Below are positions 18,600 through 20,709 of a stretch of DNA of 64,000 nt, piece after piece. Position numbers and translations under genes: made by a program. The stretch's first letter is position 1; each line of letters opens with the position of its first letter. The stretch is taken from the sequence record PQ819470.1; one strand, written 5' to 3'. Below the pieces are notes generated by a model, which worked only from the letters and a program-made list of their open reading frames with translations, did not search any database and had not been told where the DNA came from. The stretch is from Escherichia phage ev_rybdy3.

Positions 18600-18678
18600 T
18601 CAATGGGTGCCTCTGGTAAAGGGGCACAATTTAAAGGTTAATTAGATGAAAGGGTTTACCCTTCAGGTGGATTAGAAA

Positions 18679-20709
18679 ATTTGTGGCATCGTATTAGCTG
18701 GCGGTAATCTGTCAAGCACTGATTTAGACGTATTCAACCAACTCTTTTATGCTGGAGTATTCCGAGGACAGCACTCCTCTGGTATCTTTGGTCAGCGTAA
18801 GAGCACTAAGGAAGTCTTCACTTATAAAGAGGCACTTCCTTCTTTCGCATTCATCCTTCAAGATGAGTACAAGAAACACACCACTGGTGAAACAGCTTAC
18901 ACTGTAGCACCTTCATGGATTGTTGGTCACAGCCGTCATGCAACGAAAGGTGCAGTTAACGCCAAGAACGCCCATCCTTTCCAACATGGTAACATCACTC
19001 TGGTTCATAACGGAACCTTGATGGACCAAGATCTGTTACCTGACAGCAAAAACTTCGAGGTAGACAGTGAGAACATCTGCCACTCTATTAACACTATTGG
19101 TGCAGCAGAGACTATTCAAAAGCTGGATGGTGCTTTCACCTTAATCTGGCATGATGCTTCTGATAACCGTCTTCATATCATCCGTAACGAAGAGCGTCCA
19201 TTCCACCTCGCACGTTGTAACAGGGATTGGTTTGGTGCTTCTGAAGAAGACATGTTGATGTGGATTCTAAAGCGTTCTAAGTCTCACAAAAACCGAATTG
19301 ATGAGCACTTTGAATGTAAAGTTGGTACAGAATATATCTTTGATATGTCAAACAACAGCATGACTCTAGTTGAAGAGGTCGCCCACGAGCTTCCGGTTTT
19401 TACGGTAATCAATCGTTGGGGCAATTACTACTCGAACAACTACAGCCAAAGCAGCTATCAAAGTTCCTCAAAAAGCAGTACAAGCAATCCTTACGACACG
19501 AAGCCGGGAGTGACAGCGGCAGACGTTCGTCGAAGAAACGCAGTGGTAAGTCAAAACAAAATAGCAAGCGATCGAAACATTGACATTCGCCGCGACATGA
19601 CTGTGGAAATCACACCACATGAGTTTGTTCCTTATGCAACTGCTGGTGCTGTTCCTTCTCGTGGTAAGATGATCGGTTATATCTACGATGAGAAGTCTCA
19701 AGAGTATATCGAAGGTGATGTTCATAACGTAGACATTAAGGCTTATCAGGATGCCCTGAAAGACCCTAAAATCGTTTACCGTGGGACAGTATCCTGCATC
19801 TCCGAAGTTAATGCTATGGTTCGTTTAGTGATCACAGCAGGTCGTTTTGTTGACCCATCTCTGGAGAAAAAGGAGCCTGAGTCTACTACTGCTGACTTCG
19901 ATGATGATATCCCTTTTGACATGAATGATAGTTTCGTCAATAAGAATGGCGTTACTATCACTCGTAAATTCTGGGAAGCACACTCTCACGGGGATTGTGG
20001 TGGTTGTGACAAACATATTGATTGGAAGGATGCACCTAAAGCAGTCTTCGCATATCAATGCTACTGGCACCCTGAATGTCTGGAAGGTTTGACTAAACCT
20101 AAAGATGAAGAAGAGGAGGAAACTCCTATTGGTGTTTGTGAAATCTGCGGTGAAGTTAAAACAGAGAATGAGTTCGATGAAGAACTTAGTCGTCTTCGTG
20201 GTGAAGATATCTGTAAAGTCTGCGCTGTAGATGTAAAGAAGAAAGTATCTAATGCTACAATCAAAGATGGTTATGTCTGGATTAAAGCAACAGATACAAC
20301 AAACGCCCGTCGCCCTGAATTTGCTTTACGTGTAACTGAAGATATGATCGGTCGTATGACTGTATTACCTTCCTCAGCGAAACAGACAGGCATCACTCTG
20401 GAGGATGTTGTTGATGCTTATGTTGAGAAACGTAGCAACAGTATTTTTGCAATCTCAACTAAGCCAAAAAAGGAGGAACCTGCTGAGAAAGCAGGTGTGT
20501 TTCCTGAATCACGAACAGCTCTCCGCAAAACTGTTGTCAGCTTCGACGGAAACCGAAGCACTGACTTCACCAAAGCCATGTGGTCAACCCTCGGCTACTG
20601 CTCAGAGTGTTTTAAGCAGATTCCGTGGCGCGATGCTGAAAGTTGTACGCTTGGTTCTATGAATCAAGTTTATTGTAATTCTCCTAAATGTTCATTGAAT
20701 AGAGGTTAA
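18679..20709 (+). CDS. class-II glutamine amidotransferase (Ntn) domain protein with Cys-rich C-terminal extension
   Basis: frame open upstream of track start 19018; ICGIVLAGG..., LVHNGTL, RNEERPFHLA resemble GAT-II; apparent ATT start after AGGTGG. Confidence 0.55.
   Translation: MCGIVLAGGNLSSTDLDVFNQLFYAGVFRGQHSSGIFGQRKSTKEVFTYKEALPSFAFILQDEYKKHTTGETAYTVAPSWIVGHSRHATKGAVNAKNAHPFQHGNITLVHNGTLMDQDLLPDSKNFEVDSENICHSINTIGAAETIQKLDGAFTLIWHDASDNRLHIIRNEERPFHLARCNRDWFGASEEDMLMWILKRSKSHKNRIDEHFECKVGTEYIFDMSNNSMTLVEEVAHELPVFTVINRWGNYYSNNYSQSSYQSSSKSSTSNPYDTKPGVTAADVRRRNAVVSQNKIASDRNIDIRRDMTVEITPHEFVPYATAGAVPSRGKMIGYIYDEKSQEYIEGDVHNVDIKAYQDALKDPKIVYRGTVSCISEVNAMVRLVITAGRFVDPSLEKKEPESTTADFDDDIPFDMNDSFVNKNGVTITRKFWEAHSHGDCGGCDKHIDWKDAPKAVFAYQCYWHPECLEGLTKPKDEEEEETPIGVCEICGEVKTENEFDEELSRLRGEDICKVCAVDVKKKVSNATIKDGYVWIKATDTTNARRPEFALRVTEDMIGRMTVLPSSAKQTGITLEDVVDAYVEKRSNSIFAISTKPKKEEPAEKAGVFPESRTALRKTVVSFDGNRSTDFTKAMWSTLGYCSECFKQIPWRDAESCTLGSMNQVYCNSPKCSLNRG

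Follow-up and report, generated by a model that had tools for sequence, protein, structure and literature searches.

A probable AUU start codon for a class-II glutamine amidotransferase gene of Kuravirus phages, and the invariant leader in front of it

AUU is a weak start codon in bacteria, discriminated against by initiation factor 3 (IF3); pcnB of Escherichia coli is a gene that starts with it. In class-II glutamine amidotransferases (GATases) the catalytic cysteine is residue 1 of the mature protein (Cys1), freed by removal of the initiator methionine or, in some members, of a propeptide. The two subjects meet in the gene analyzed here, the homologue of phiEco32 gene phi32_83 in a 64 000-nt stretch of DNA from Escherichia phage ev_rybdy3 (sequence record PQ819470.1; this whole stretch is ‘the window’ below), where translation very probably starts with AUU immediately before the codon of Cys1. 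Bacterial genes that start with AUU or AUC are known, and such a start can reduce or regulate expression (PMC5499595, PMC4447247). In infC, the gene of IF3, the AUU start provides autoregulation via IF3 (PMC5499595). In the Enterococcus faecalis gene ebpA translation truly starts at an ATT codon and not at the downstream ATG of the annotation, and the rare start reduces expression (PMC4447247).

The start of the amidotransferase gene

The initial annotation of this DNA, made from the sequence alone, had proposed that the gene starts at AUU behind a hairpin and two mini-open reading frames (mini-ORFs). On re-reading the sequence, we found its coordinates (those of the mini-ORFs, the hairpin arms, TAG, AAA, ATT, TGT and AGGTGG) all correct. 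The elements that bear on the start of translation are as follows.

18679 to 18681, + strand: ATT, the probable initiation codon; the sole near-cognate start between TAG and Cys1, invariant, and annotated as the start in some records
18673 to 18675, + strand: in-frame TAG closing the frame 5′ of ATT, also the stop codon of an upstream ORF (uORF); read from the sequence
18665 to 18670, + strand: Shine-Dalgarno (SD) sequence AGGTGG, with an 8-nt spacer to ATT
18682 to 18684, + strand: TGT, codon of Cys1, the catalytic nucleophile of the N-terminal nucleophile (Ntn) amidotransferase domain (alignment of homologues and profile match to structures)
18679 to 20709, + strand: full coding sequence of the GATase, 676 codons (phi32_83 homologue), with an N-terminal class-II GATase domain
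19018 to 19023, + strand: TTG/ATG start of most GenBank records, a mis-annotation (Met not conserved, coding signature upstream)

Between the TAG and the TGT there are only two codons, AAA (18676 to 18678) and ATT, just as had been noted; no ATG, GTG or TTG occurs there in frame, and according to the list of ORFs the first NTG codon is the TTG at 19018. The open frame 18676 to 20709 runs for 114 codons until an ATG, GTG or TTG appears, and nowhere else in the window is there so long a stretch of this kind.

Codons 1–113 (18682 to 19020), situated upstream of the first canonical start, carry a clear signature of coding sequence under purifying selection. When they were compared with three diverged relatives, codon positions 1, 2 and 3 differed at 16–22, 13 and 58–63 sites, respectively; 43–44 codons had synonymous changes only, against 22–25 with non-synonymous ones. 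Over the same interval there are no stop codons in the GATase frame, with 4 and 10 in the other two frames. As the N-terminal Cys is indispensable and the region is coding, translation must begin between the TAG and the Cys codon, where ATT is the only near-cognate start; judging from the sequence and its relatives, it is highly probable that translation starts at AUU 18679. Thus the proposal of a non-canonical AUU initiation exposing Cys1 is upheld by the purifying selection on codons 1–113, the alignment of Cys1, the invariance of ATT and its recurrence in other lineages: a canonical in-frame start is absent, the SD sequence stands at a functional distance, and the rare start codon is conserved and recurrent.

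It had been pointed out that resequencing could reveal a canonical start codon at this place; the same ATT bases are present in 96 independently sequenced phage genomes and in metagenome contigs. We therefore discard the ideas that ATT arose by faulty sequencing or assembly, or that it is an ATG mutated in this strain only, the identical bases coming from 96 phage records of many laboratories and from metagenome assemblies. An alternative genetic code, with TAG as a sense codon, is unlikely, as TAG ends other long ORFs in the window. A translational hop or frameshift was also considered and rejected: the uORF is already in frame, the GAU take-off codon has no downstream match, and a nascent peptide of nine residues would be too short.

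The gene is of the phiEco32 gp83 type, a class-II (Ntn) glutamine amidotransferase of the amidoligase/ATP-grasp early operon. With the ATT start, the predicted protein matches Pfam GATase_6 at residues 76–176 (1e-14, 55.1 bits with a cut-off of 27) and GATase_7 (27.4 bits with a cut-off of 25); the model starting at ATG 19021 retains only the last third of the GATase_6 domain, and both of its scores are under the cut-offs (GATase_6, 5e-5 and 23.7 bits; GATase_7, 20.8 bits). Aligned with one another, 12 diverse phage homologues all retain Cys1, Gly2, the Arg-Gly motif, HxRxAT, Asn-Gly and the Asp of VDS (besides Cys1 and Gly2 these are R28, G29, H83, R85, A87, T88, N110, G111 and D128). The profile of this alignment matches the solved structures of GFAT, GlmS, PurF and AsnB; its position 1 aligns to Cys1 or Cys2 of GFAT1 (6r4e, 7ndl), PurF (1ecb) and a plant ATase (6lbp), and the glutamine-site motifs line up in the GFAT alignment as well. 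Membership in class II is thus indicated by the N-terminal Cys predicted from the sequence, by the profile match over the domain and by the glutamine-site residues.

The C-terminal region of ∼430 residues is rich in Cys pairs. The C-terminal two thirds of the GATase (window 19400 to 20709) have no Pfam match and contain CxxC-type pairs resembling zinc ribbons (HGDCGGCDKH...CYWHPEC, CEICGEV...CKVC and CSECFKQ...CNSPKC); they stand where classical class-II amidotransferases have a synthase domain.

The ATT start is already annotated in the records of phiEco32 (2008), SU10, LAMP and Bas93, so the core claim of an AUU start is not new, and AUU initiation as such has been known before. ATG 19021 is the annotated start in ev_rybdy8, NJ01, Paul and many others, while KBNP1711, EP335, SU7 and YF01 use still other positions. 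The TTG/ATG start at 19018 to 19023 given in most records is a mis-annotation; in relatives the Met of ATG 19021 is Val, Leu, Tyr or Thr (alignment of the 12 homologues). As a consequence, most of the ∼96 records drop the first 113 residues: the catalytic Cys and half of the GATase domain are lost, and the Pfam match falls under the cut-off. This truncation will recur in each new genome as long as the gene caller does not accept ATT as a start. Our literature search, whose reach did not extend to the primary phiEco32 papers (Savalia 2008 and Pavlova 2012), found no discussion of this ATT start. What is new is the invariant 58-nt leader, the recurrence of ATT/ATC across the enzyme family, and the association of these codons with strong SD sequences and a hairpin just upstream.

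Start codons across the enzyme family

From phage records, IMG/VR and metagenomes we gathered 147 loci whose N-terminus could be recognised; grouping them at ≥60% identity over residues 1–50 gave 82 lineages. The codon before Cys1 was ATG in 72 lineages, ATT in 7, ATC in 2, GTG in 3, TTG in 2 and CTT in 1 (a doubtful case). Ten lineages had no NTG codon before Cys1, and nine of these ten had ATT or ATC, which is to be expected of a near-cognate start and not of a random internal codon. The ATT/ATC lineages (9) even outnumber the GTG and TTG lineages taken together (5); this pattern runs opposite to that of ordinary gene sets, as bacterial genes start with AUU or AUC only now and then (PMC5499595).

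The single CTT was seen in a contig of IMG accession Ga0194135_10000031 (L179, ∼600 to 705), with no visible SD sequence. It is the only homologue with neither NTG nor ATT/ATC at this place; its protein may have an N-terminal propeptide or be defective.

All ATT/ATC cases have an SD sequence ∼8 nt 5′ of the start (GGAGG, AGGAG, AAGGAG or AGGTAGGA). The median energy of the duplex with the anti-SD was −8.7 kcal/mol for ATT/ATC versus −6.3 kcal/mol for ATG (Mann–Whitney p = 0.009). A stem-loop of at least 5 bp, ending 9–22 nt before the start and just 5′ of the SD, was present in 6 of 9 ATT/ATC and 9 of 72 ATG lineages (Fisher p = 0.0009), an enrichment to be taken as a lead rather than a result, because the criterion was chosen after inspection and some lineages share ancestry. 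Its counterpart in the window is hairpin A, described below. A stop codon within 12 nt upstream, tried as another hallmark of ATT/ATC starts, was rejected, being found in 52 of the 72 ATG lineages as well.

Three lineages have both ATG and ATT/ATC members (L073-75 versus L077, L162/165/166 versus L163/178, and L125/132 versus L126); in these the whole initiation region differs between the two kinds of members, not the codon alone. The number of independent ATT/ATC origins is between about 3 and 7. Several ATT regions share AAAATTTGTGG, and L163 and L178 share GGATTAGAAAATTTGTGG with Kuravirus. Matches of 16 in 22 positions occur also among unrelated ATG regions, so the similarity of ATT regions may be convergence.

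The likeness of L163 (567 to 592) and L178 (680 to 705), both soil metagenome contigs, to Kuravirus is a case of its own. Their start region, GCAGGAGGATTAGAAAATTTGTGGAATC, is nearly the same as CAGGTGGATTAGAAAATTTGTGGCATC of Kuravirus, with enzymes only ∼35% identical; in the sister contigs L162, L165 and L166 the gene upstream is another one, and the start region, with ATG, is unrelated. It could have come about by exchange of an initiation-region module or by convergence.

With ATT/ATC starts in ∼11% of its lineages, this single phage enzyme family offers a natural data set on what makes AUU starts work, and on why a protein with a fixed first residue would favour AUU.

The invariant leader and rival explanations

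By sequence identity the window is that of a phiEco32-like Kuravirus: the region is 100% identical to Escherichia phage ev_rybdy8, 96–98% identical to phiEco32, NJ01, SU10 and ∼65 other Kuravirus genomes, and ∼75–78% identical to phages of Nieuwekanaalvirus and Suseptimavirus. Against this background the sequence in front of the gene stands out. Its elements, and the gene that precedes it, are the following.

18629 to 18686, + strand: invariant leader plus start block, 58 nt, ATTTAAAGGTTAATTAGATGAAAGGGTTTACCCTTCAGGTGGATTAGAAAATTTGTGG (exact match to SU7, comparison across three genera)
18646 to 18675, + strand: mini-ORF2 (the uORF), ATG 18646 to TAG 18673 to 18675, peptide MKGFTLQVD, in frame with the GATase
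18650 to 18663, + strand: hairpin A, AAGGG / UUUA / CCCUU, −5.3 kcal/mol by folding; its 3′ end is 1 nt before the SD
18607 to 18627, + strand: hairpin 1, an intercistronic stem-loop of 8 bp with loop GGTAA, −13.9 kcal/mol (folding, covariation)
18603 to 18641, + strand: mini-ORF1, 12 codons, ATG 18603 to TAA 18639 to 18641, peptide MGASGKGAQFKG, overlapping hairpin 1
17496 to 18599, + strand: upstream amidoligase gene (phi32_84 homologue), from the ORF list and the annotation of identical or related phages; its TAA stop is 80 nt 5′ of ATT 18679

The leader is a 58-nt exact match to SU7, where the genome background is 77% identity, and it is invariant in five representatives of three genera. 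A 63-nt query around the ATT was 100% identical in 68 phage records and had one difference in 28 more (96 Gordonclarkvirinae records); where sequences were read, this difference was GGC to GGT, at the wobble position of a Gly codon (18687). Leader and ATT occur also in IMG/VR and metagenome contigs; a search of IMG/VR with the DNA pattern TAGAAAATTTGYGGNATHGT returned nothing but known Kuravirus-type contigs and one chance match (L103). Of the coding third positions adjoining the leader over half are substituted. The 3′ boundary of the block lies just beyond the start and Cys codons (one metagenome contig has TGC for Cys, and the wobble position of the next Gly codon varies), which ties the constraint to the initiation region. 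In Aeromonas phage BUCT695 (Grimontviridae), with an enzyme only 53% identical, the same leader is found with two changes, one in the loop of hairpin A and one in the SD (AGGCGG), followed by ATT-TGT.

The leader is an isolated local island and not a unique feature of the genome, as longer exact runs shared by Kuravirus and SU7 exist elsewhere, in mosaic blocks and in some other intergenic islands. SU7, elsewhere 77% identical, shares many long runs without a mismatch (up to 196 nt) with the window at 29704 to 33838 and 1770 to 2678, a distribution that points to mosaic blocks of recent exchange between Kuravirus and Suseptimavirus. Other short intergenic islands, invariant between Kuravirus and SU7, are at 2611 to 2678, 8081 to 8130 and 39516 to 39600.

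Hairpin 1 is a real, covarying stem-loop. The arms given in the initial annotation, GTGCCTCT (18607 to 18614) and AGGGGCAC (18620 to 18627), do pair over 8 bp; in Kuravirus, Nieuwekanaalvirus and Suseptimavirus a compensatory change (T-A to C-G) and a G-U wobble preserve the stem, while the loop varies among relatives (GGTAA, GGCAA, GACAA, GATAA, GACGA, GAAA and TATAC). The homologues were folded singly, an alignment by MAFFT having misplaced the 3′ arm. Phages 7-11, GAP52, PKM.Lu.22.1 and ECO319P1 have unrelated stems with GAAA or UUCG tetraloops at the same position, after the upstream gene. As for an intrinsic terminator, the tail of hairpin 1 is AAUUUAAAGG, with no U-tract, and the terminator scan did not call it; the homologous hairpin of phage 7-11 has a tail richer in U (UUCUUU). 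Hairpin 1 may be a weak terminator, or an element of stability or processing. As to the two mini-ORFs reported upstream, both exist, yet the relevance given to the first did not hold: the ATG of mini-ORF1 is ACG in L116, and indels alter its frame or stop in KBNP1711 and EP335. We rejected it as a functional leader peptide; not being conserved, it is a chance ORF irrelevant to the gene.

The second mini-ORF, the uORF, ends with its UAG 3 nt 5′ of AUU, and the SD sequence of the GATase falls inside it. In Kuravirus a weak SD-like AAAGG (18633 to 18637) lies 8 nt 5′ of the uORF ATG; in BUCT695 no SD-like sequence was seen 5′ of the uORF AUG. The BUCT695 uORF would encode MKGLTLQAD; both changes are non-synonymous and none is synonymous, so it is the nucleotides that are constrained and not the peptide. 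Hairpin A is kept in BUCT695, the sole change (U to A) being in its loop. With only two variants of the leader available, covariation cannot support a specific RNA fold. Two other structures were discarded: hairpin B (18654 to 18660 pairing with 18666 to 18672, −5.2 kcal/mol), a candidate switch sequestering the SD, is as stable as hairpin A in Kuravirus but lost in BUCT695 (−0.2 kcal/mol); a long-range pairing, GGUUAAU with AUUAGCU, in the minimum free energy fold is not kept in BUCT695, and the folding z-scores of the leader are weak (−1.3 to −1.8).

Could translation start elsewhere and the Cys be exposed in another way? Ribosomes might start at the uORF AUG 18646 and read through UAG 18673, making a 12-residue propeptide, MKGFTLQVD-X-KI, that would be removed autocatalytically to expose Cys1. 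Propeptides are indeed removed in some Ntn amidotransferases (Bacillus subtilis PurF, glutamate synthase), the uORF is in frame with the GATase and perfectly conserved, and at metagenome locus L163 an in-frame upstream ORF of 167 codons ends at the same TAG-AAA-ATT arrangement. However, the gene upstream in L178, sister to L163, has a different frame; the peptide, given the non-synonymous differences of BUCT695, is not the conserved item, the SD is at ideal distance for AUU and not for AUG 18646, and other ATT/ATC lineages have no in-frame upstream start at all. To our knowledge no readthrough signal is present at the UAG, a codon that, as said above, terminates other long ORFs in the window; we consider such readthrough very improbable. 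Alternatively, the true product could come from the internal TTG/ATG at 19018 to 19021, with the 113 codons upstream being an untranslated remnant of a decayed GATase without nucleophile. This is the start chosen by gene callers in most records, and the mass of 63.8 kDa listed for the protein detected in SU10 proteomics fits the truncated model. Such a remnant is hard to reconcile with the third-position bias of divergence and the lack of stops over codons 1–113; the internal start would leave out half of the GATase domain and every N-terminal catalytic residue, its Met is not conserved, no SD precedes 19021, and annotated starts vary from record to record. We find an internal start hardly credible.

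A different question is what keeps 18629 to 18686 invariant. AUU may well be used, with the uORF and hairpin A being incidental, if the block is a promoter, a regulator-binding or RNA-processing site on the early transcript, or the operator of a phage translational repressor. The other intergenic islands agree just as perfectly in Kuravirus and SU7, the block starts in AU-rich sequence right behind a structured hairpin, and the existence of only two leader variants leaves a specific RNA fold without backing from covariation. Relatives with an ATG start carry TTTAAATGTAAA (with AATGTAA) at the homologous position, where the window has TTTAAAGGTTAA. The gp36 promoters of phiEco32 have the consensus tAATGTAtA, with start sites 6–8 bp downstream (PMC8948821), so this AATGTA core would suit a phage promoter. 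In the window, however, AAAGGTTAA departs from the gp36 core at two positions; the six mapped gp36 promoters of phiEco32 are upstream of genes 6, 13, 26, 40, 58 and 68, none at the GATase leader (PMC8948821), and the table for SU10 reports no promoter or terminator at the leader. A sigma-70 scan found nothing on the + strand, and an Rfam scan gave two hits only, both far under the gathering scores. Moreover, the block ends just past the start and Cys codons. A cause of the invariance other than AUU-specific translational control is a possibility to be kept in mind, though a rather unlikely one; part of the block may have a role at the DNA level or in RNA processing.

The motif TTTAAATGTAAA(A/T)TAGAGG was seen ∼20–45 nt 5′ of the GATase start in L019/L029, L020/L032, L031, L033, L009 (GAP52) and L010 (BUCT695), and recurs in homologues with ATG starts; with its gp36 AATGTA core it could be a phage promoter placed right before the SD. 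The version in the window, TTTAAAGGTTAATTAGATG, has diverged. On the minus strand a sigma-70-like promoter (18715 to 18688; TTGACA, 16 nt, TACGAT; 10 of 12 matches) was rejected: its −35 box is not conserved in KBNP1711 or SU7, and the antisense signal is probably fortuitous.

Several observations weigh against AUU initiation assisted by its leader. The case for the AUU start is a comparative one: we found no experimental proof of it and no N-terminal protein data for gp83, and the SU10 proteomics paper, whose listed mass agrees with the shorter model, is silent on the N-terminus. The SD sequence of the window leader is only of moderate strength (AGGTGG, −5.9 kcal/mol with the anti-SD). Two out-of-frame codons, UUG 18681 (opening an ORF of 8 codons) and GUG 18683 (4 codons), adjoin AUU; they can be reached from the same SD and might draw initiation away from AUU. 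The leader does not fold better than shuffled sequence, and the hairpin statistic is post hoc with lineages that are not fully independent. Coupling through the uORF has little support, as the uORF is seen only in the leader of Kuravirus and BUCT695 and is absent from other ATT/ATC lineages, and as ATG lineages have a stop codon close to the start just as often.

Proposed mechanism and comparison with known systems

On the anatomy of the locus, the 30S subunit would bind the SD at 18665 to 18670, and the initiator tRNA would pair with AUU 18679, decoded as formylmethionine. Deformylase and methionine aminopeptidase would then remove this residue, making Cys1 the nucleophile, as can be supposed from general knowledge of Ntn enzymes; the predicted N-terminal peptide is CGIVLAGGNLSSTDLDVFNQLFYAGVFR, with Cys1 first. 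As Cys must be residue 1, the start cannot move, and expression has to be set via the start codon and the initiation region. Since initiation at AUU is weak and sensitive to IF3 (PMC5499595), synthesis of the gp83 enzyme is probably low or under conditional regulation.

Weak initiation at AUU may be compensated or regulated by the hairpin 5′ of the SD and by the uORF, which stops 3 nt before the AUU. In the reading that we prefer, they would deliver ribosomes to the AUU or hold them there, by termination-reinitiation, by presentation of the SD, or both. We regard a specific role for either the uORF or the hairpin as possible, yet doubtful. One could speculate further that the whole 58-nt leader is a dedicated module for efficient or regulated AUU initiation, composed of an SD with its hairpin, an A-rich spacer AUUAGAAA and a nine-codon uORF handing ribosomes over, and that such modules have been repeatedly selected, possibly exchanged by recombination, among phage Ntn amidotransferase genes; this is a tentative idea that we think unlikely. 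If it were true, the module would occur a second time in an unrelated soil-phage lineage (L163 and L178, with sisters that start at ATG), as the near-identical GGAGGATTAGAAAATTTGTGG. The invariant leader is, in any case, a compact candidate for translational control of a phage early operon.

This operon contains amidoligases, a COOH-NH2 ligase, the class-II glutamine amidotransferase (phi32_83), an ATP-grasp enzyme and a gamma-glutamyl cyclotransferase. In vB_EcoP_YF01, and in this Kuravirus only, an HNH endonuclease gene is found directly 3′ of the GATase gene (L185, 2614 to 3120); as the insertion is downstream of the GATase gene, it is irrelevant as a clue to the leader. In SU7 another HNH gene lies beside the COOH-NH2 ligase gene of the same operon.

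Like GlmS/GFAT, PurF and AsnB, the phage protein has an N-terminal Cys nucleophile with Arg, Asn-Gly and Asp as active-site residues. It differs from them in having the uncharacterised ∼430-residue Cys-pair region instead of a synthase domain, and its gene is part of an amidoligase/ATP-grasp cluster and starts with AUU rather than AUG.

The arrangement of the uORF resembles termination-reinitiation coupling at short upstream ORFs, in that the ORF stops 3 nt before the next start and contains the downstream SD. Here such coupling would be by analogy; the uORF does not extend to the other ATT/ATC lineages and has no SD of its own in BUCT695.

With E. coli infC and pcnB the gene shares an SD sequence and an AUU start, and in infC and pcnB the rare start lowers or regulates synthesis. 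In contrast to these, gp83 is a phage early enzyme whose start position is fixed by the need for Cys as residue 1, and its AUU is embedded in a 58-nt invariant leader with a uORF; control of gp83 by IF3 could be suggested by analogy only. A parallel in annotation is ebpA, where likewise an ATT was the true start and a downstream ATG had been wrongly annotated. The two proteins belong to different families, and the ebpA start was proven by mutagenesis and fusions, while that of gp83 is derived from comparison.

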